Origin: Patescibacteria group bacterium
GTDB taxonomy: Bacteria; Patescibacteriota; JACPGU01
Assembly (NCBI GenBank): GCA_022703645.1
Contig: JAKLDG010000001.1
Coordinates: 507,918 to 571,917 of the forward strand
Direction of reading: 5' to 3'
DNA length: 64,000 bases
The notes beneath the pieces are model-generated. The model searched no databases. It worked only from the letters and a program-made list of their open reading frames with translations, and was not told the origin of the DNA. Position numbers and translations under genes: made by a program. Of the stretch, positions 4,362 through 16,632 are shown piece by piece. Position 1 is the stretch's first letter. Each line of letters opens with the position of its first letter.

Positions 4362-5135
4362 TTATGGTATTGTGCAATTTTGCGTAACAGTAGGCTTAGC
4401 GCCCGTACAAAAACTGTCATTTACTATAACTCCGTCCGATCTTCGGCAATAAACATTCCTGCTTTGTGTCCCATTATTACCAAGTACACAACTTCCCCAA
4501 TTACCCCAAGCGCCATTAATTGCCAAAGTAAATGTAGCCTTAACATCTTTGGCAGTATCCATCGTCACTGTACAGAGATTATTAGTACCGGTACAAGCCC
4601 CACTCCAACCGGTAAAAGCAGAGCCAGCGGAAGCGTTTGCCTTCAGCGTTATTGAACTATTATACATTTTATCTACATAACAGCTTGTACCACAGCTGAT
4701 ATCTCCGGCAGGATTAGTAGAAAGGACTCCCCCGGAACCAGTACCATCTTTGGTAACAGTAAGTCTATAAGTTTGAACAGAAAAGTTTGCCCTTACAAGA
4801 CCATTCCCCGCGCCAAAAGTAAAAATAGCAGGGTTAGAGTTTGGATCAGAAATAGAACCATTACTAGAAAGCACCGCCCAGTTAGAAAAAACATATCCGG
4901 GTTTAGCTGTAGCCTTAATTTCCCTAGTAGAACCGACTGCCCCGGGACCAGCCCCGCTTGTCGTACCCCAACTACTGGGATTAACCTGAAGCGCAAGATT
5001 ATAAGTGGTTTGCGCGAACCCCTTAATCGTACCGCCAACAAAAAAAACCAAAACTGCAATAACTAAAATCAACATCAATAAAATATTGCTTTTTTGCTTT
5101 GCTTTCTTATTTGTATTTATATCTATCGGATCCAT
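4362..5135 (-). CDS. Secreted protein with two InlB-B-repeat-like domains and a C-terminal thrombospondin-type-1-like repeat
   Basis: N-terminal signal anchor (LLMLILVIAVLVFFVGG). Repeats of the G.G.V...A.A.PGY.F..W.....N.....T...NA.F type appear twice. The C-terminus reads NGAWGNWGSCVLGNNGTQSRNVYCRRSDG...C...QNC. Confidence 0.6.
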   Translation of the reverse strand: MDPIDINTNKKAKQKSNILLMLILVIAVLVFFVGGTIKGFAQTTYNLALQVNPSSWGTTSGAGPGAVGSTREIKATAKPGYVFSNWAVLSSNGSISDPNSNPAIFTFGAGNGLVRANFSVQTYRLTVTKDGTGSGGVLSTNPAGDISCGTSCYVDKMYNSSITLKANASAGSAFTGWSGACTGTNNLCTVTMDTAKDVKATFTLAINGAWGNWGSCVLGNNGTQSRNVYCRRSDGVIVNDSFCTGAKPTVTQNCTIP

Positions 5136-5361
5136 TTTTTAAGTTAACTTAATTTGCCACTGAAAATACTTCTGTAGTATAACCCTTTAGATCTGCCATC
5201 TTTTCATCAAGGCATGATTTAGTTATCATCGTAGTATTCAAAATCCCAACCTTAGTCTTAAGTTCAGAAACATCAGATTTTTATTTTATTTATTTTTTAA
5301 TAATTTCTTTACCACATCCGCGCTTTTTCGATTTCTTGCTTTTTTGTTTAATTGTCCCTCT

Positions 5362-6804
5362 CTATGGCAAAACTGTGTCAAAAGTAATCACTGTGTCTCC
5401 TGCTTTTGCGCTAAATCCGCTCCAAAGCAAAATACTACCCGTAACCACTGGGTCAGCCAAAGCTGCTCCGTCTTTTTTTGCCGTACCAGAAGTATAATTA
5501 AAACCTGCCGGCAAGATATATTTCACATCAACTAACTTGTCCGCAGTGTCCCCATTACTGACTGTTAAAGTAACTTTTACAGTTTGGTTCGCTCCCCTTT
5601 TTGCAGTAGCATACATTGTCGAATCAGTAGTATTTTCCAATTTCGTATGAATTGAAACGCCTTTATATTGATAAGTATTCCCAGATGTTGTTGGACAAGT
5701 CGGAGAAATTACCGGGGTTGGGTTATTCGGATTACAAGAATTTTTAACAACTGCTGCATATCGCAAATCGGAACTTGTAGGATTTGGTAGATAAGCAATT
5801 GAATATTTCGTTTCACAAGCAGGAATTACCGCCCTTAAAACCGGATCAGATGTATCAGAATTATTATCTAAAGTCAAAAATACAGACGATTGTCTATCTG
5901 CTGCTATAGCACCACCAAAAATAAAATAATTACCGCTACCAGAACCACTTTGAATATAATAAATATTGGGAAATATATATCCTCCTGATGATTTATATTT
6001 TTTCGCAGTATAATTTGAATTACCGTCATTTGCCCCTAAAATATAACCTTTATCCGTACTGATAAACCGATATGTAGAATGAGTATCGATGCTATTTGCT
6101 ATTCCATAAATATTAGTATCATACTTTCTACCCTCATCTTTCCATTGTCTATCAATAGAACTAGGAGCAAGAACCCAAGAACACGCCACATAACCATCAC
6201 CATAAAGCATGCACATACCACTATCGCTTACACCAATTCTTTTTGCATTATTGGAAAAACCAGAAAAAGCCGGTTTACTTATGCTATAAGAAGATAAATA
6301 TGATTGCCAGCTAGAACCATTATTATCACTATAGTATGCACCGCCATCATTTTCTAATACAACAATTCTATTCCCAAAAGAACTTATATCTACTATTTTT
6401 GAAACATTATTACCTAAGGCTGGAATTTGATATGATGCAGTTATGTCTTCCTCGGGGGAAAATAAAGTAATATCGATTCTTTTTAATTTTGTCGCTGTTG
6501 AATAGAAGAGATAAGGAGACGGTTGAGGAGAAGTCGCAATAGCAGTAATCTCTTCGCTCGAAGGGATATTAATAGGGTTTTTCCATGTATTATTATTCCA
6601 GTCATAATAAACTATCTTATCAAAAACTTCTGCGCTTGTTTTCGTCTTCCCTTCATCCTGTGCCATACCGCGCAAAGATAGACCGTAAACCGCGCTAGCC
6701 ATAAGAAGCATAACTATAAAAATAAATGTTTTACTTTTCCCCGATGTATGCAAAAGATCATATCCCGCTCTCTTTAGTCTCAGTTTTAGATGAAAAAGTT
6801 TCAT
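5362..6804 (-). CDS. Secreted hypothetical protein with a C-terminal DUF11-like (conserved repeat domain) segment
   Basis: 480 aa with a signal anchor (TFIFIVMLLMASAVYGLSL). The C-terminal region (VKVTLTVSNGDTADKLVDVKYILPAGFNYTSG...) is typical of DUF11 surface repeats. Confidence 0.5.
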   Translation of the reverse strand: MKLFHLKLRLKRAGYDLLHTSGKSKTFIFIVMLLMASAVYGLSLRGMAQDEGKTKTSAEVFDKIVYYDWNNNTWKNPINIPSSEEITAIATSPQPSPYLFYSTATKLKRIDITLFSPEEDITASYQIPALGNNVSKIVDISSFGNRIVVLENDGGAYYSDNNGSSWQSYLSSYSISKPAFSGFSNNAKRIGVSDSGMCMLYGDGYVACSWVLAPSSIDRQWKDEGRKYDTNIYGIANSIDTHSTYRFISTDKGYILGANDGNSNYTAKKYKSSGGYIFPNIYYIQSGSGSGNYFIFGGAIAADRQSSVFLTLDNNSDTSDPVLRAVIPACETKYSIAYLPNPTSSDLRYAAVVKNSCNPNNPTPVISPTCPTTSGNTYQYKGVSIHTKLENTTDSTMYATAKRGANQTVKVTLTVSNGDTADKLVDVKYILPAGFNYTSGTAKKDGAALADPVVTGSILLWSGFSAKAGDTVITFDTVLP

Positions 6805-6822: not shown

Positions 6823-7242
6823 TTAATGTATTTTTGCAAAGGCTGCCTTTTCCAATTTCTTAACACGAATATCTAAATCTAAGAAATCTTTTGAATCAAC
6901 TTTTGTTTTCAATTTCTCTCTAACCGCTTTAATCTCTGCTATTATCGCTTTTTCCATTATTCCCATACTATCAATCTTTTTCTCAACAAAATCCAATCTT
7001 TCAGCAAGGCCGTCAAGCTTACCTTCCAAGATGCCAAATCTCTTGTCAACCTGTTCAAATCTATTATCAATGTCATCCAATTTTTTGTCTACTCTTTTAA
7101 AGTTTTTATCAACAATAACAGCCAAACCGTTAACTTCATCTGAAATTTTTTGTGAAAGCAATGTTATTACCCTTTTCTCTGATTCTTTAATAGAACCATC
7201 AACAATTCCCTTAATTTTTTCTAAATCATTTTGATCTAGCAT
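6823..7242 (-). CDS. Coiled-coil hypothetical protein
   Basis: 139 aa, strongly heptad-like and charged (KKLDDIDNRFEQVDKRFGILEGKLDGLAERLDFVEKKID). It has no TM and no recognisable catalytic motif. Confidence 0.45.
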   Translation of the reverse strand: MLDQNDLEKIKGIVDGSIKESEKRVITLLSQKISDEVNGLAVIVDKNFKRVDKKLDDIDNRFEQVDKRFGILEGKLDGLAERLDFVEKKIDSMGIMEKAIIAEIKAVREKLKTKVDSKDFLDLDIRVKKLEKAAFAKIH

Positions 7243-7510: not shown

Positions 7511-8497
7511 ATGAAGAAAAAAAGCAAAAAAAGATTTCATTTTTATTTATCTATGCTTTTTTTTGTGTGTCTAATTTTTTCAGTATTGAGCACTTTAAAG
7601 ATTGGCGCCGAAGCAGGCTCTGCTAATCATTTTTTTAGAAATCAATTAAACAAAAATCCGGAAGGATCTGGAATTCAAAGTATTAAAATATCCGGCATCG
7701 CAGGTAATATATATAGCTTCCTCTATGCTGGTCAGAGCCAAAGTAATCTAACGCTTGCACCGGGTGAAAGCGCAGATCTTTCGTTAAGTCTAAAAAATAC
7801 CAGCACTACCTATTGGGACAGAGGAACATTTCACCTTGGTACTAGTCATTCACAAGACCGAAATAGCATTTTCTCTGATGATTCATGGCTTTCTGCTGAT
7901 AGAATAGAAATGGATCAAGATATCGTAGAGCCCGGAAATTTTGCGCATTTTGGTTTTACTATCACAGCCCCAGAAAAAAGCGGCATCTACTATGAATACT
8001 TCCGACCGGTTATAGATGGTACCGCATGGCTGCAAGATGTAGGAATATTTTGGAAAATTACTGTTAAAAAACCAACTGATGATATTTCTGCTCTTCCTAT
8101 TTATAATAAAATCGGCGTCAAAAAGATTGTGATTTCAATTAGTTCTCAGAACCTGAAATGTTATGAAGGCGCAGATATTGTATGTGATTTCAAGATTTCT
8201 TCCGGAGCCCCAGGTCTCGATACACCAATCGGCAATTTCAAAGTTGAAAAGAAAAGAGATGTCGCCTACTCTGCTGCTTATGACCTATATATGAATTATT
8301 GGATGGCTTTCACACCAAACGAAGCCTATGGAATTCATGAATTGCCTTATTGGAAATATTCTTGGGGCACAGTTACAGAAGGCGCAAATCATCTCGGAGT
8401 TAAAGTCTCGCATGGCTGTGTCAGACTTGGTATTGGGTCAGCAAAACAAGTCTACGACTGGGCTCCAATTGGAACGCCAATACAGATAGTTGATTAA
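7511..8497 (+). CDS. L,D-transpeptidase (YkuD family) with an N-terminal Ig-like (NBR1-like) domain
   Basis: Signal peptide. The C-terminal catalytic domain carries the diagnostic SHGCVRL motif (HLGVKVSHGCVRLGIGSAKQVYDW). The N-terminal ~120 aa (LAPGESADLSLSLKNTSTTYWDRG...FTITAPEKSGIYYEYFRPVIDGTAWLQDVGIFWKITV) is homologous to three domains in the giant protein at 60146-64000. Confidence 0.85.
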   Translation: MKKKSKKRFHFYLSMLFFVCLIFSVLSTLKIGAEAGSANHFFRNQLNKNPEGSGIQSIKISGIAGNIYSFLYAGQSQSNLTLAPGESADLSLSLKNTSTTYWDRGTFHLGTSHSQDRNSIFSDDSWLSADRIEMDQDIVEPGNFAHFGFTITAPEKSGIYYEYFRPVIDGTAWLQDVGIFWKITVKKPTDDISALPIYNKIGVKKIVISISSQNLKCYEGADIVCDFKISSGAPGLDTPIGNFKVEKKRDVAYSAAYDLYMNYWMAFTPNEAYGIHELPYWKYSWGTVTEGANHLGVKVSHGCVRLGIGSAKQVYDWAPIGTPIQIVD

Positions 8498-9353: not shown

Positions 9354-9725
9354 TTAAAACGAATCTTCAATTGACCGGTCACATTTTCTCGAAATAGCCG
9401 CAAATATCAACGTCAGCTCATGAGCCTCCAACCATAATATCCTACATCTCCTACATCGATCAATATGGCTCTCATTTGAAGTTCCTATCATTCTTAGCCA
9501 ATACTTTGTTTCGTTGGCTTCTTTTTGACAAATTCGTGTTTTGTTCTTAAAATCCTTCTTACTGCTTGCTCCATTAGCTTCCATATAATTAGCTCCGATA
9601 CTTGTTGCTGATCTAACTATCTGAGAAATTAAAGGTCTCGATATTTCATTCCCGTCAATCCCCATGCAAAATTTTATAACATTTTCACCAAACCGCGCAA
9701 CCCTCTCTTCTAAATCATAGTTCAT
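9354..9725 (-). CDS. Four-helix-bundle protein (TIGR02436 / '23S rRNA intervening-sequence protein' family)
   Basis: 123 aa with the characteristic segment SQIVRSATSIGANYMEANGASSKKDFKNKTRICQKEANETKYWLRM. This family is very common in CPR genomes near rRNA/tRNA loci and introns. The gene is flanked by inverted copies of AATTTTTAATTTTTAA (9343-9358 and 9753-9768). Confidence 0.7.
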   Translation of the reverse strand: MNYDLEERVARFGENVIKFCMGIDGNEISRPLISQIVRSATSIGANYMEANGASSKKDFKNKTRICQKEANETKYWLRMIGTSNESHIDRCRRCRILWLEAHELTLIFAAISRKCDRSIEDSF

Positions 9726-14230: not shown

Positions 14231-14423
14231 ATAATTAACGATAATTCACGTTTTAACAAACCCTGTTTTGAGATGGGGCTAGTGGTTTAAGATCGACCTA
14301 CAATTTTTATTAGGGAGCTCACTATATGATTTCGCTGATGTGAAGTCATGAGAGCACCCACCTAGATTATCTAGGTCACGATCTTTTCTCATTTGGCCCT
14401 ATCTTAAAGCAGAGTTTTTGTGC

Positions 14424-14497
14424 CGGGGCATGGGATAGTGGCAGTCCGCAAGGCTGGGGGTCTTGTAGCGGCGGTTCGATTCCGCCTGCCCCGACCA
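14424..14497 (+). tRNA. tRNA-Pro (anticodon GGG), CCA encoded
   Basis: CGGGGCA-TG-GGAT-AGTGGCA-GTCC-G-CAAGG-CTGGGGG-TCTTG-TAGC-GGCGG-TTCGATT-CCGCC-TGCCCCG-A-CCA. It has the C1:G72 pair and A73 typical of bacterial tRNA-Pro, and G37. Confidence 0.75.
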
Positions 14498-14861
14498 ACC
14501 GAAACAATTTGCGAATTCAGTGCAAGAATTCAGTTGTTGGCTATCTTATCTGTATTTTATTTGGCAGCATTTCAAAATATAATCAGAAACCTGCGCCAGA
14601 TGCGAGCAAGAAGCACCTTTCGGTCTCAAAGTACTTTTTTGATTTTTATTAAAATCAAAACTATGACTTTATCATAGAGCCTTAAGTTTTCGGCGGTTCC
14701 AGTCCTTAGACTAAAACACATTGCCTATTCTGTGGCTTAGTATAGCATTTTTTTGAGAGTAAAAAAAGAGCGAGATTTTCGTGAGAAAAAATCGCTCTAT
14801 TATTTCAGAGAAAAAGATCAAGGGTTCAAAAAATTCAAGAACCCAAGATTCAGGATTCGGA

Positions 14862-15809
14862 TCACTCCGGGAGAAACCCAGACACCGAAGCATAGGAGCC
14901 GCCGTAGCTGTCAATACTGCGCGCACCGAACCTCACCCCGCCGCCGCCAAAGTCGAAGTAAGGCGCACTACTGCAGAGATTGAAATCGTTATCAAAAAGA
15001 GACTGATCTCCGGCGCAATCCATGTCCAGCTCCTCCCAACGAGAAAGTCGTTTATGGTGAGTTAAGATAACAGAGCCGATCTCAAGAGACCCCTCACCGA
15101 ACTCCCCACCGAACTCTCGTCGAATATACAGCTTATGCCCCCCTTGAACTGACTTGCCTCGCCATCTCATGCCGAGTTGCATGGGGTGAATAATGATGTC
15201 AGCTCCCTTTTGCATTTCGATGAGGCGATCTATCATATCGGCTGTCCGTGAAAGTCGACCAAAGTAACCCGGCGTAATCTGCACTCCTTGATATTTATAA
15301 AAATTCCCTCTCGATAAAGCAATCTTTTCCAGAACCAGATTTACACCGGAGCAATAGCGCGCAGGGCGGTCCTCCACCTTCGGATAAAACTTTTCTGCCA
15401 GCGCGTACTCGTTCGGAACTGCAAAAGGACCCTCCACCCATTTTGGCAAAACGAGTTTCGGATACACGTCACACATATAGCGGAATGTCGGCTCCGGGTC
15501 AAGGCGGGGGAAATATTTTAGGAGTATCTCCACCTGCTTTTCGATTGGCTTCGGTCCCCTGTACTCCGGCGGGTAAGTATATTTTGACTTCACTTCCTTG
15601 TCGGCGAAATCCTTGGGTGTGCGGTTTTTCGCAATAAACTGCGCGAACATTTCAGCAAGACCCGGGGTTTCGTTAATACGCTGAGCCTCTTCATCGGAAA
15701 GCTCAGCCTTGTCATACTGTGTCTCCACGATAGACATGCACTTGCGACCTTTCGGATCTCGGTGTGTAACTTTCGACGGGGCCAATGTTTTATCTTCCAT
15801 CGGAACCAT
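14862..15809 (-). CDS. Orphan hypothetical protein with anomalously high GC (putative horizontally acquired gene)
   Basis: 315-aa ORF. Its DNA is visibly GC-richer (about 50%) than its surroundings, with different codon usage (GCC/CCG/CGC-rich). It is flanked by ~350 bp and ~520 bp of non-coding DNA, immediately 3' of tRNA-Pro. I recognise no family; the C-terminus is Gly/Ser/Tyr-rich (FDFGGGGVRFGARSIDSYGGSYASVSG). Confidence 0.5.
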   Translation of the reverse strand: MVPMEDKTLAPSKVTHRDPKGRKCMSIVETQYDKAELSDEEAQRINETPGLAEMFAQFIAKNRTPKDFADKEVKSKYTYPPEYRGPKPIEKQVEILLKYFPRLDPEPTFRYMCDVYPKLVLPKWVEGPFAVPNEYALAEKFYPKVEDRPARYCSGVNLVLEKIALSRGNFYKYQGVQITPGYFGRLSRTADMIDRLIEMQKGADIIIHPMQLGMRWRGKSVQGGHKLYIRREFGGEFGEGSLEIGSVILTHHKRLSRWEELDMDCAGDQSLFDNDFNLCSSAPYFDFGGGGVRFGARSIDSYGGSYASVSGFLPE

Positions 15810-16329
15810 CTCCTTTCAGTACAATGCTCTTCAGCTTTTTAACCCAGATACTCGGGTTTTTAAGGTTCATAAAATCTGAACCGTCTATCTGTTAAATTAT
15901 ACCACGAAACTAAATAAAAGTAAAGTATTTTAGTCGGTTAAGCCATTTTATTCGCAACTATCTTTGTTATACATCTTATTCTTTTATTTTTCATTCCAAA
16001 ACCTTTATCTTTTTATCTATCCCTGCTATAATAAATCAAATTTCAAAATAGCCGCAATTTCCTAAATCGTGGCAAGAAGCGAAGGCGGAAAATTGAGCGG
16101 AAAATTCGGATTCGGGGTTTTTGGGCGGAACAATTCTGCCCCCATCAGAATGCTCCGCCCAAAATGAGATTCAGAAATTCTTATTCGGGTTTTCTTCATA
16201 AAAATTTCGCGCTTCGTTCAATAGTTGCGACCAAAAAAATCACTTCCCTCTTTTGCAAAATAGAGTTATATTATAAATAAATCAATTAATCAATAAAGCA
16301 AGGAAACAAAAAATCAATAAAAAATCATT

Positions 16330-16632
16330 ATGAAATCAAACAAAAATGAACTCGGTTTTTCTGTTTTTGGAACCATTTTTGCAGTTGTGCTATTAATTGT
16401 ATTAATTGGTGCCGGATATTTTGCTTATCAACTCGTAAAAGACAACAAGAATAATTTAACAACTAAGAACGCGAAAGATATGATCACGAACCAAGTCGGC
16501 AAAACCAAAAATGAGATCGATTCCGCTGCCAGTAGTGCTGCAACCAGCGCCATAAATGAGATAAAAGACAGCGCAGCAAATAGTGCCAAAGGCGCGGTAA
16601 ATGATACTGTAAATAATGTTTTAGGAAAATAA
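16330..16632 (+). CDS. Small membrane-anchored hypothetical protein
   Basis: 100 aa, N-terminal TM (FSVFGTIFAVVLLIVLIGAGYFAY), then a low-complexity Ser/Ala/Asn tail. It sits immediately upstream of the 756-aa gene. Confidence 0.5.
   Translation: MKSNKNELGFSVFGTIFAVVLLIVLIGAGYFAYQLVKDNKNNLTTKNAKDMITNQVGKTKNEIDSAASSAATSAINEIKDSAANSAKGAVNDTVNNVLGK

Follow-up and report, generated by a model that had tools for sequence, protein, structure and literature searches.

A GC-rich gene beside tRNA-Pro in a Patescibacteria contig encodes a putative solo target protein of a diversity-generating retroelement

In a complete diversity-generating retroelement (DGR) of the family described here, a DGR reverse transcriptase (RT) and the protein Avd, a homopentamer in BPP-1, reverse-transcribe the RNA of a template repeat (TR). 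Template adenines are copied at random, and the resulting cDNA overwrites the last ~130 nt of a target gene, the variable region (VR), so that ~20 residues on a binding surface at the C terminus are randomized anew. According to PMC12875486, it is not yet understood how the cDNA locates the VR and replaces it. Wu et al. 2018 (PMC5758913) report 73 DGR targets that are non-adjacent, for example in Treponema denticola. Here we describe a gene from a 64-kb stretch of Patescibacteria DNA (the window) that would represent only the recipient half of such an element: a target open reading frame (ORF), a footprinted VR, a CTTGA element, and a promoter-like site and terminator of its own. The following features were assigned at this locus:

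14424 to 14497, plus strand: tRNA-Pro(GGG), called by ARAGORN and Rfam; a neighbor, not demonstrably an integration site.
14760 to 14798, minus strand: predicted intrinsic terminator for the target gene, with a 14-bp stem, a TCAC loop, and seven T in a row, from inverted-repeat search and RNA folding.
14818 to 14854, minus strand: five CTTGA-like pentamers (CCTGA, CTTGG, CTTGA, TTTGA, CTTGA), conserved 3′ of the VR.
14864 to 14993, minus strand: putative VR, the last ~43 codons, from its match to a TR profile and its adenine-mutagenesis footprint.
14862 to 15800, minus strand: coding sequence of the putative target protein, 312 aa, from the ORF list, an identical public protein (P0001), and 47 further homolog clusters.
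15896 to 15924, minus strand: promoter-like site (TTTACT, 17 nt, TG-TATAAT), from a consensus scan with 10/12 matches, a pattern match only.
16118 to 16165, no strand assigned: near-perfect hairpin with a 19-bp stem, from folding, located upstream of the target gene in the divergent intergenic region.

The original prediction placed a single GC-rich orphan gene in a compositional island of ~1.8 kb immediately 3′ of tRNA-Pro. The ORF is intact, and its open frame runs on along the minus strand to 15809 (315 aa). An AAGGAG ribosome-binding site (15815 to 15810) adjoins the first ATG and lies 9 nt ahead of the second (15800); because of this placement the start at 15800 is favored, in agreement with the 312-aa annotation of P0001. 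The GC content of the ORF is 50.6% (0.506) and its GC3 0.547, compared to a GC content of 0.36 for the remainder of the window. The window has 33 ORFs that reach 250 aa or more; the 32 others ranged from 0.29 to 0.42 in GC and from 0.24 to 0.35 in GC3, which confirms the predicted sharp outlier in GC and codon usage near tRNA-Pro. A sliding-window GC plot, the check proposed along with the prediction, gave the same result (0.48 to 0.51 over 14800 to 15850; 0.30 to 0.37 on either side). The predicted extent, in contrast, was too large: the GC steps coincide with the ends of the ORF, the flanks (14498 to 14861 and 15810 to 16329) are host-like at 0.34 to 0.37, and the island consists of the ~950-bp ORF alone. 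Within 14498 to 16330 the target gene is the only ORF with homologs. The flanks are non-coding as described; they are not simply decayed, since they carry the terminator, a conserved cis element, and the promoter-like site.

The protein had not been recognized from its sequence, and indeed no curated family accounted for it: NCBIfam and PADLOC returned no matches, and those in Pfam and PHROGs were at chance level. A second suggestion, that of an acquired defense or toxin gene, likewise found no support in PADLOC. The label of orphan did not survive a search for homologs, which recovered 48 clusters (clustered at 90% identity) with 37 to 61% identity to the window protein, one of them (P0048) a partial match only, and a wider family of 2,002 cluster representatives (50% identity) at E ≤ 1e-3. 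The hosts of this family are mostly Patescibacteria/CPR and their phages, and Pfam matched nothing in any of the 47 aligned members.

The genomic neighborhoods of these homologs point to a function. In 11 to 13 of the 15 other loci, the homolog adjoins a DGR comprising bAvd, RT, and TR; bAvd and/or RVT_1 were called beside it in L001, L002, L032, L033, L034/35, L047, and L049, and tblastn detected an RT at 10 of 11 loci. In five related loci, the mismatches between TR and VR fell at TR adenines in 16/20, 16/16, 22/22, 19/19, and 12/13 cases, and L047 and L004/L015 likewise have a TR. A search of genome, metagenome, and viral contigs with a degenerate pattern of the VR 3′ end returned mostly chance matches, with L004/L015 and L020 as the only true relatives. 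On the strength of these sequence comparisons, we identify the gene as the predicted variable (target) protein of a Patescibacteria/CPR-type DGR, and a putative DGR role is now assigned to a family of ~2,000 clusters that lacks a Pfam entry.

The window copy bears the corresponding trace in its own sequence. A profile built from the TRs of five related DGRs had a single match in the window, at 14864 to 14993 (E = 1.9e-6), and the protein columns corresponding to this segment are hypervariable upon a conserved scaffold. The GC-rich run ccgccgccgccaaagtcgaag falls within the segment and encodes FDFGGGG on the minus strand. Scored against the consensus of the five family TRs, which is not the window copy's own TR, the segment is divergent at 81% of the adenine columns (21 of 26) and at 21% of those without adenine (15 of 72), a pattern that we interpret as the footprint of adenine mutagenesis. 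Its end, CCGGAGTGA, resembles the VR end of L001, the closest relative linked to a DGR.

Directly 3′ of the VR lies the family-specific pentamer array, the first pentamer 7 nt past the stop codon and the start-to-start spacings 7, 8, 9, and 8 nt; a hairpin (GGGTTC-N11-GAACCC, 14822 to 14844) is contained within it. The same array was found 3′ of the VR in L001, L004, L032, L033, L034, L038 to L041, L046, and L047 and was absent downstream of the TRs. A four-repeat version of the pattern matched the window once and matched none of 50 shuffles. A single conserved hairpin 3′ of the VR was considered and rejected: short stems occur in several loci in differing registers, and the robust feature is the periodic array rather than one covarying helix. 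Past the array, related loci, too, carry a strong hairpin and then a run of T, as at the terminator of the window copy. On the other side of the gene, the promoter-like site lies ~85 nt upstream of the ribosome-binding site (15810 to 15815). The hairpin at 16118 to 16165 may not belong to the element; its 19-nt arm has no other copy in the window. The Rfam search of the flanks returned no family besides tRNA and 6S RNA, the latter a near-threshold match upstream of tRNA-Pro.

The other half of a DGR was sought throughout the 64 kb. Neither tblastn nor an RT hidden Markov model (HMM) over the six-frame translation detected an RT (best E = 1.9); over the same six frames, an Avd HMM built on five family loci reached E = 0.32 at best; a tblastn search that used two Avds and fragments of RT as queries yielded nothing below E = 0.9; and blastn (word size 7) and nhmmer with the TR profile recovered the VR alone, with no TR and no second copy of the VR. 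A complete DGR cassette is absent from the window. A PF05635 (23S_rRNA_IVP) gene at ~9354 to 9725 was considered as a candidate Avd and rejected, as the family Avd HMM did not match it and no RT lies nearby. In a profile search of proteins for RTs, none of the best 120 of >7,000 matches was traceable to this genome.

The GC content that first drew attention to the gene is a trait of the target gene family in every host examined. The GC content of the target exceeded that of its own RT by 7 to 28 points and that of its own flanks by 6 to 21 points in every locus examined (target/RT/flank, 0.53/0.46/0.45, 0.59/0.31/0.39, 0.61/0.41/0.45, and 0.62/0.39/0.42 in four loci). It was the highest of the three in 11 of 11 loci, and three more loci, in which the target was compared to the remaining locus, agree. 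Across the family, adenine shows the strongest depletion of all bases at third codon positions. Because the GC excess is limited to the ORF in every related locus examined, the "island" is a family trait, and GC-richness is no evidence of a recent foreign origin. Moreover, since the contrast also occurs where the RT and Avd of a resident DGR are host-like or lower in GC, it is uninformative about how recently the gene was transferred. Methods that call foreign DNA from GC deviation would systematically mislabel this family in AT-rich Patescibacteria.

These observations bear directly on two other accounts of the locus. The ORF could be the foreign, GC-rich cargo of a mobile island whose remnant sits at the 3′ end of tRNA-Pro, an account that we now regard as very improbable. 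The gene lies only 364 nt from tRNA-Pro between non-coding flanks, but 14498 to 16330 contains no integrase or recombinase ORF, and the 3′ end of the tRNA (last 16 or 25 nt, up to 3 mismatches) has no direct repeat elsewhere in the window; a CTGCCCC match noted at ~16150 is attributable to chance. Related DGR cassettes do occur beside recombinase genes or in phage-like context (L033, L047, and L049), L002 adjoins a tRNA cluster, and the DNA past tRNA-Pro in L037 has fragments resembling tRNA 3′ ends; set against these, the deviant GC stops at the ORF boundaries with host-like DNA beyond, and the same contrast is seen within resident DGRs. The order of an M50 protease gene and tRNA-Pro(GGG) recurs in a relative, L037; in a search via the neighboring M50 protease, the only close relative (85% aa identity) lay on a contig of 1.4 kb that breaks off immediately past tRNA-Pro. 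The idea of a remnant was nevertheless close in spirit, because the gene would be one half of a retroelement system, the recipient, with the donor half absent from the window; what lacks support is integration of a foreign island at the tRNA. Still less credible, to the point of being nearly negligible, is an assembly chimera in which a fragment from a GC-richer organism was mis-joined into the contig. Over both junctions, a GenBank metagenome-assembled genome (L011) and a JGI contig (L036) match the window at 100% identity, and a short-read Logan contig (L012) does so over the tRNA-side junction. Although the GC step is abrupt and L012 breaks off at 16113, within the upstream hairpin, the steps coincide precisely with the boundaries of the ORF, the host-like, AT-rich DNA outside it contains the gene's terminator, ribosome-binding site, and promoter-like site, and the ORF-limited step is common to every other locus examined. 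The GC island beside a tRNA is thus a false lead that can be set aside, most probably neither an island gained by horizontal transfer nor an assembly error.

A closer question is whether the VR is still being rewritten. With modest confidence, we regard the window copy as a solo DGR target, probably orphaned, with a VR that is now frozen. Two further solo copies, L046 and L048, were found, making 3 of ~16 loci examined. At 78 conserved columns, the three solo copies deviate 14, 14, and 8 times and six DGR-linked copies 1 to 6 times (one-sided Mann-Whitney P = 0.013, comparing 3 with 6 proteins that lack phylogenetic independence); six substitutions and an insertion of 4 residues fall in and beside the near-invariant RHRGRSVRRAREVF motif of the window copy. 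This surplus in solo copies is consistent with loss of the diversifying machinery. GC3 also tends to be lower in solo copies (0.55 to 0.68) than in DGR-linked copies (0.59 to 0.81). Alternatively, a DGR elsewhere in the genome or in a resident phage, >14 kb away on one side or >48 kb on the other, may rewrite the VR in trans, recognizing it by its end and by the CTTGA array; we consider this possible but less likely. The intact ORF, the strong adenine footprint, the array with its family spacing, and the resemblance of the VR end to that of DGR-linked L001 are what a target in use would retain, and solo copy L046 keeps its array as well (L048 does not). Yet TR, RT, and Avd are all missing from the 64 kb, substitutions have accumulated at conserved core sites, and non-adenine divergence from the TR consensus reaches 21% in the window copy versus 6 to 11% in DGR-linked copies. 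Precedent is divided: non-adjacent or remote targets are documented for other DGRs in PMC5758913 and PMC8144416, and a reconstituted DGR acts on a target borne by a separate plasmid in PMC12875486, whereas PMC5758913 describes CPR-lineage DGRs as mostly single-target, with none >100 kb from the RT. The VR is identical in three public assemblies, L011, L012, and L036, although perhaps from the same reads; these assemblies, 100% identical to the window and probably of common read origin, are therefore uninformative about VR heterogeneity. We thus hold the gene to be probably orphaned rather than diversified in trans. As an orphan, it would encode an apparently cytoplasmic, putative binding protein of fixed specificity that is drifting at otherwise conserved sites.

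Two further ideas are speculative, and we think each improbable. In this DGR lineage the CTTGA array could serve as the site of target recognition, for example by docking a complex of Avd, RT, and cDNA, and the GC enrichment could be a product of selection to shield the body of the gene from collateral adenine mutagenesis. Were the array such a site, solo targets such as the window copy would be rewritable in trans, and either idea, if true, would offer a handle on the cDNA integration step of DGR retrohoming. The excerpts of the DGR literature compared here mention neither the ORF-limited GC enrichment nor the CTTGA array 3′ of the VR; the target-versus-RT GC contrast and the VR-side array could interest DGR specialists.

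DGR targets are expected to display the VR on a C-type-lectin (or Ig) fold; structural comparison places the window protein only loosely among known folds. The predicted C-terminal domain opens with strand-helix-helix and closes with beta strands bearing the VR. In a Foldseek search with this isolated domain, the best matches were C-type-lectin-like (E = 0.27 to 1.2; target-normalized TM score, 0.41 to 0.45; not significant); C-type-lectin or snake-venom lectin-like domains made up five of the six best matches and 13 of the 50 listed, none significant. A profile search of the PDB gave no matches at E ≤ 10. Like the C-type-lectin-fold DGR proteins Mtd, TvpA, AvpA, and TaqVP (PMC5006420, PMC6328139), the window protein would carry a C-terminal VR on a compact domain. 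It differs from them in an N-terminal helical part of ~120 residues and the conserved basic motif RHRGRSVRRAREVF, and none of these solved DGR proteins was among the listed Foldseek matches.

The closest described systems are the CPR DGR targets, termed "DGR clade 2" by Roux et al. 2021 (PMC8144416) and the "CPR" lineage by Wu et al. 2018 (PMC5758913). Several features are shared: homologs of the window protein adjoin bAvd, RT, and a TR with adenine mismatches, the VR likewise takes up the final ~130 nt of the gene, the hosts are likewise Patescibacteria and phages, and, as reported there, the protein has no recognizable transmembrane or conserved domain. The window copy differs in that TR, Avd, and RT are absent within 64 kb and the conserved core motif is degraded. 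It resembles the non-adjacent or remote targets in being a VR-bearing gene away from any RT that has kept its VR-end sequences, although those targets were defined through a known TR in the same genome, and the window copy has no TR in 64 kb. Finally, a canonical GC-rich IMH with a GC-rich hairpin was not evident 3′ of the window VR. As in BPP-1, whose IMH and stem-loop are described in Guo et al. 2011 (PMC3240598) and PMC12875486, a candidate cis element containing a short inverted repeat lies directly 3′ of the VR, at the target and not at the TR. The BPP-1 element consists of a 14-mer and, after it, a hairpin, both GC-rich, whereas that of the present family comprises 4 to 6 AT-rich CTTGA-like pentamers 7 to 9 nt apart, a candidate target-side cis element that would set the VR apart from the TR.

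The target gene beside tRNA-Pro is an extreme compositional outlier, which confirms the GC and codon-usage anomaly of the original prediction. In 300-nt windows, GC content was 0.48 to 0.51 over ~14800-15850 and 0.30 to 0.37 on both sides. The target ORF (GC = 0.506, GC3 = 0.547) stood apart from the rest of the window (GC = 0.36) and from all others of the 33 window ORFs of at least 250 aa (GC = 0.29 to 0.42, GC3 = 0.24 to 0.35). Its third-position bases were A.17, C.24, G.31, and T.28, versus A.33, C.13, G.15, and T.39 in the other 32 ORFs. Of the 1.8-kb island that had been proposed, the ORF is GC-rich, but its flanks of 364 nt and 520 nt have host composition. The gene and its surroundings comprise the following features:

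14424-14497, plus strand, tRNA-Pro(GGG)
14760-14798, intrinsic terminator of the target gene (14-bp stem, then seven T)
14862-15809, minus strand, target ORF (open frame of 315 aa)
15896-15924, promoter-like site of the target gene

The true product is probably the 312-aa protein of the GenBank annotation (P0001), because the AAGGAG ribosome-binding site at 15815-15810, which touches the first ATG, precedes the ATG at 15800 by 9 nt.

The protein had not been recognized from sequence, and curated libraries (Pfam, PHROGs, NCBIfam, and PADLOC) likewise gave no usable match. It is not the orphan it had been called: we recovered 47 homolog clusters (46 near full length, 37 to 61% identity), and among 1.84 billion cluster representatives searched with a profile, 2,002 proteins matched at E ≤ 1e-3, 947 of them at E ≤ 1e-30. 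Named sources of homologs were Patescibacteria, e.g., Taylorbacteria. The conserved core of the family alignment (A1) includes AAQLGMRHRGRSVRRAREVF, NEFGLGSLAVGSIVLTHPERL, and LDMDCxGDEF, and the final ~40 residues are hypervariable over the fixed scaffold F.F..G.V.F......YGS.SGFLPQ.

A diversity-generating retroelement (DGR) targets this family. Genes for bAvd (PF22296) and reverse transcriptase (RT; PF00078) adjoin the homolog in L001, L002, L032, L034/35, L047, and L049, and the same parts are present in L033, with the donor block upstream and inverted. By tblastn, 10 of 11 loci had an RT, three viral contigs among them. In all five loci tested, the final ~135 nt of the gene recur nearby as a template repeat (TR), and mismatches between the TR and the variable region (VR) of the gene fell at TR adenines in 16/20, 16/16, 22/22, 19/19, and 12/13 cases. 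Differences that fall almost entirely at template adenines are the hallmark that defines mutagenic retrohoming by DGRs.

Individual elements vary in architecture. The usual order is target, TR, Avd (opposite strand), and RT; the phage-like contig L033 (2946-4525) has the inverse, with TR and RT upstream of the target on the opposite strand and Avd between. The RT ORF is frameshifted at a (GA)n microsatellite encoding RERERE in two unrelated genomes (L001, ~8290-8330; L002, ~8400-8470) and intact in L032, L034, L047, and L049; the split RT could reflect a slippage on/off switch or sequencing error. In L002 (~6895-6900), the VR of homolog P0013 carries a 1-nt deletion relative to its own TR, resulting in a frameshift, read-through of the pentamer array described below, and an aberrant 332-aa product.

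The window copy retains both a VR and a cis array directly 3′ of it:

14864-14993, minus strand, VR
14854-14850, 14847-14843, 14839-14835, 14830-14826, and 14822-14818, array of CTTGA-like pentamers, starting 7 nt past the stop codon

The VR was the sole match in 64 kb to a DNA profile built from five TRs of the family (E = 1.9e-6). Relative to the TR consensus, it differs at 21/26 adenine columns (81%) and 15/72 non-adenine columns (21%); by the same test, DGR-linked VRs differ at 42 to 77% and 6 to 11%, respectively. The ccgccgccgcc run in the original prediction is the antisense of GGC GGC GGC GGG, where the templates have AAC/GAC/AAG-type codons. The five pentamers are spaced by 7, 8, 9, and 8 nt, and most related loci carry this array, identically spaced, after the VR, among them the distant L004 (a Humimicrobiaceae MAG) and the viral L040 and L041. 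No second match to the four-repeat pattern occurs in the window, and 50 shuffles yielded 0. The array was not found downstream of TRs, where a different conserved hairpin lies instead.

With the family alignment, AF2 confidently modeled the window protein (pLDDT 85.7) as a helical N-terminal part and a C-terminal alpha/beta domain, which opens with strand-helix-helix and holds the VR in its closing beta strands. No signal peptide or hydrophobic segment was found in the protein sequence, and Foldseek searches of the model against PDB and BFVD returned no significant neighbor. For the C-terminal domain alone (pLDDT 78.7), lectin-like domains of C-type-lectin or snake-venom type made up five of the six best PDB matches and 13 among the 50 listed; these matches (EMS16, ZK002, rhodocetin, BDCA2, convulxin, and DEC205) reached only E = 0.27 to 7, with target-normalized TM of 0.41 to 0.45 for the best five.

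The donor half is missing from the window. L001 and L002 Avd and RT queries gave nothing below E = 0.9 by tblastn, RT and Avd HMMs reached at best E = 1.9 and 0.32 against the six-frame translation, and no second VR copy was present in the 64 kb. A donor half is thus lacking for 14.8 kb beyond the VR and for 48 kb in the opposite direction. At ~9354-9725 (minus strand), beside the tRNA-Tyr/Thr cluster, sits an isolated PF05635 (23S_rRNA_IVP) gene. Avd proteins can weakly match PF05635, as that of L047 does; we rejected this gene as an Avd candidate, as it was unmatched by the family Avd HMM and has no RT nearby.

The window copy is a CPR-type DGR variable-protein gene present as a solo copy. 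Neither RT nor TR lies within 5 kb of two further solo copies, L046 (P0018) and L048 (P0044). The first (5001-6053), which retains the CTTGA array, neighbors AbiEii/DUF4325 and type IV pilus genes; the second (5001-5849), flanked by a ribosomal-protein cluster and alaS, has lost the array.

We slightly favor the interpretation that the window target has been orphaned and frozen. Of 78 highly conserved columns, 14, 14, and 8 deviate in the three solo proteins, compared to 1 to 6 in the six DGR-linked ones (one-sided Mann-Whitney P = 0.013, for a small sample of proteins that are not phylogenetically independent), and the window protein carries six substitutions and a 4-residue insertion in or beside the near-invariant RHRGRSVRRAREVF motif. 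Diversification in trans appears rather unlikely by comparison. It is consistent with the intact ORF, VR end, and CTTGA array of the window copy, and passages of PMC12875486 describe DGRs able to act on a target in trans. Against it stand the excess deviation and altered motif, the recurrence of solo copies, and their tendency to lower GC3; furthermore, CPR DGRs are mostly single-target in the passages of PMC5758913, which also place targets >100 kb from the RT in another lineage. A small remainder of probability falls to readings other than orphaning and trans diversification.

The GC-richness of the target gene is intrinsic to the family. At every related locus examined (L001, L002, L020, L032-L034, L038-L041, and L046-L048, together with window 14862-15809), target ORF GC exceeds that of its own RT (by 7 to 28 points), Avd, and flanks.

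GC content of target ORFs and their surroundings at related loci
L001: target.53, RT.46, flanks.45
L002: target.61, RT.51, flanks.55
L020: target.47, RT.39, flanks.39
L032: target.59, RT.31, flanks.39
L033: target.63, RT.50, flanks.48
L034: target.61, RT.41, flanks.45
L040: target.62, RT.39, flanks.42
L041: target.55, RT.34, flanks.37
L046: target.56, rest of locus.42
L047: target.62, rest of locus.40
L048: target.56, rest of locus.45

At these loci the GC steps fall at the ends of the target ORF, GC rises slightly at the TR, and homolog GC3 reaches 0.59 to 0.81. In the target ORF, depletion at third positions is stronger for A than for T; adenine avoidance as the cause of the contrast fits this depletion but is not proven by it. 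Because GC-richness is a family trait, the anomaly cannot be taken as evidence for recent transfer, tRNA-directed integration, or misassembly. Integration at tRNA-Pro, as originally suggested, is not supported: besides the target gene, the segment from tRNA-Pro onward (14498-16330) held no integrase or other homolog-bearing ORF, and a search for a direct repeat of the tRNA-Pro 3′ end found no copy. An assembly chimera is effectively excluded, since three public assemblies (a GenBank MAG, a JGI contig, and a Logan contig) match the window at 100% identity, the first two across both junctions.

The order M50 protease, conserved RNA-like segment, and tRNA-Pro(GGG) is common to the window and its relative L037, whose contig ends too early to reveal what lies beyond tRNA-Pro. 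The segment between the protease gene and tRNA-Pro (14262-14414, plus strand) is a near-threshold match to 6S/SsrS RNA (RF00013) that covers the full model at 41.9 bits and E = 2.9e-7, below the gathering score of 46.4; conserved in L037, it was missed by the gathering-threshold scan. In L037 (1232-1445), tRNA-Pro(GGG) is followed by two tRNA-3′-end-like fragments, GTTCGACCTGCCCGCCCGA and GGTTCCACCTGCCCCGA, after which another tRNA begins; the fragments may be scars of past integrations at the locus. The divergent intergenic region of the window contains a near-perfect hairpin at 16118-16165 (19-bp stem, TTTTGGGCGGAACAATTCTG / CAGAATGCTCCGCCCAAAA, loop CCCCCAT). No further copy of its arm occurs in the window, and the short-read Logan contig stops just before it.

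The target-versus-RT GC contrast was not mentioned in the passages of published DGR surveys that we found; together with the CTTGA array, it might merit specialist follow-up. These elements correspond to the DGR clade restricted to Patescibacteria that a 2021 study describes (PMC8144416).
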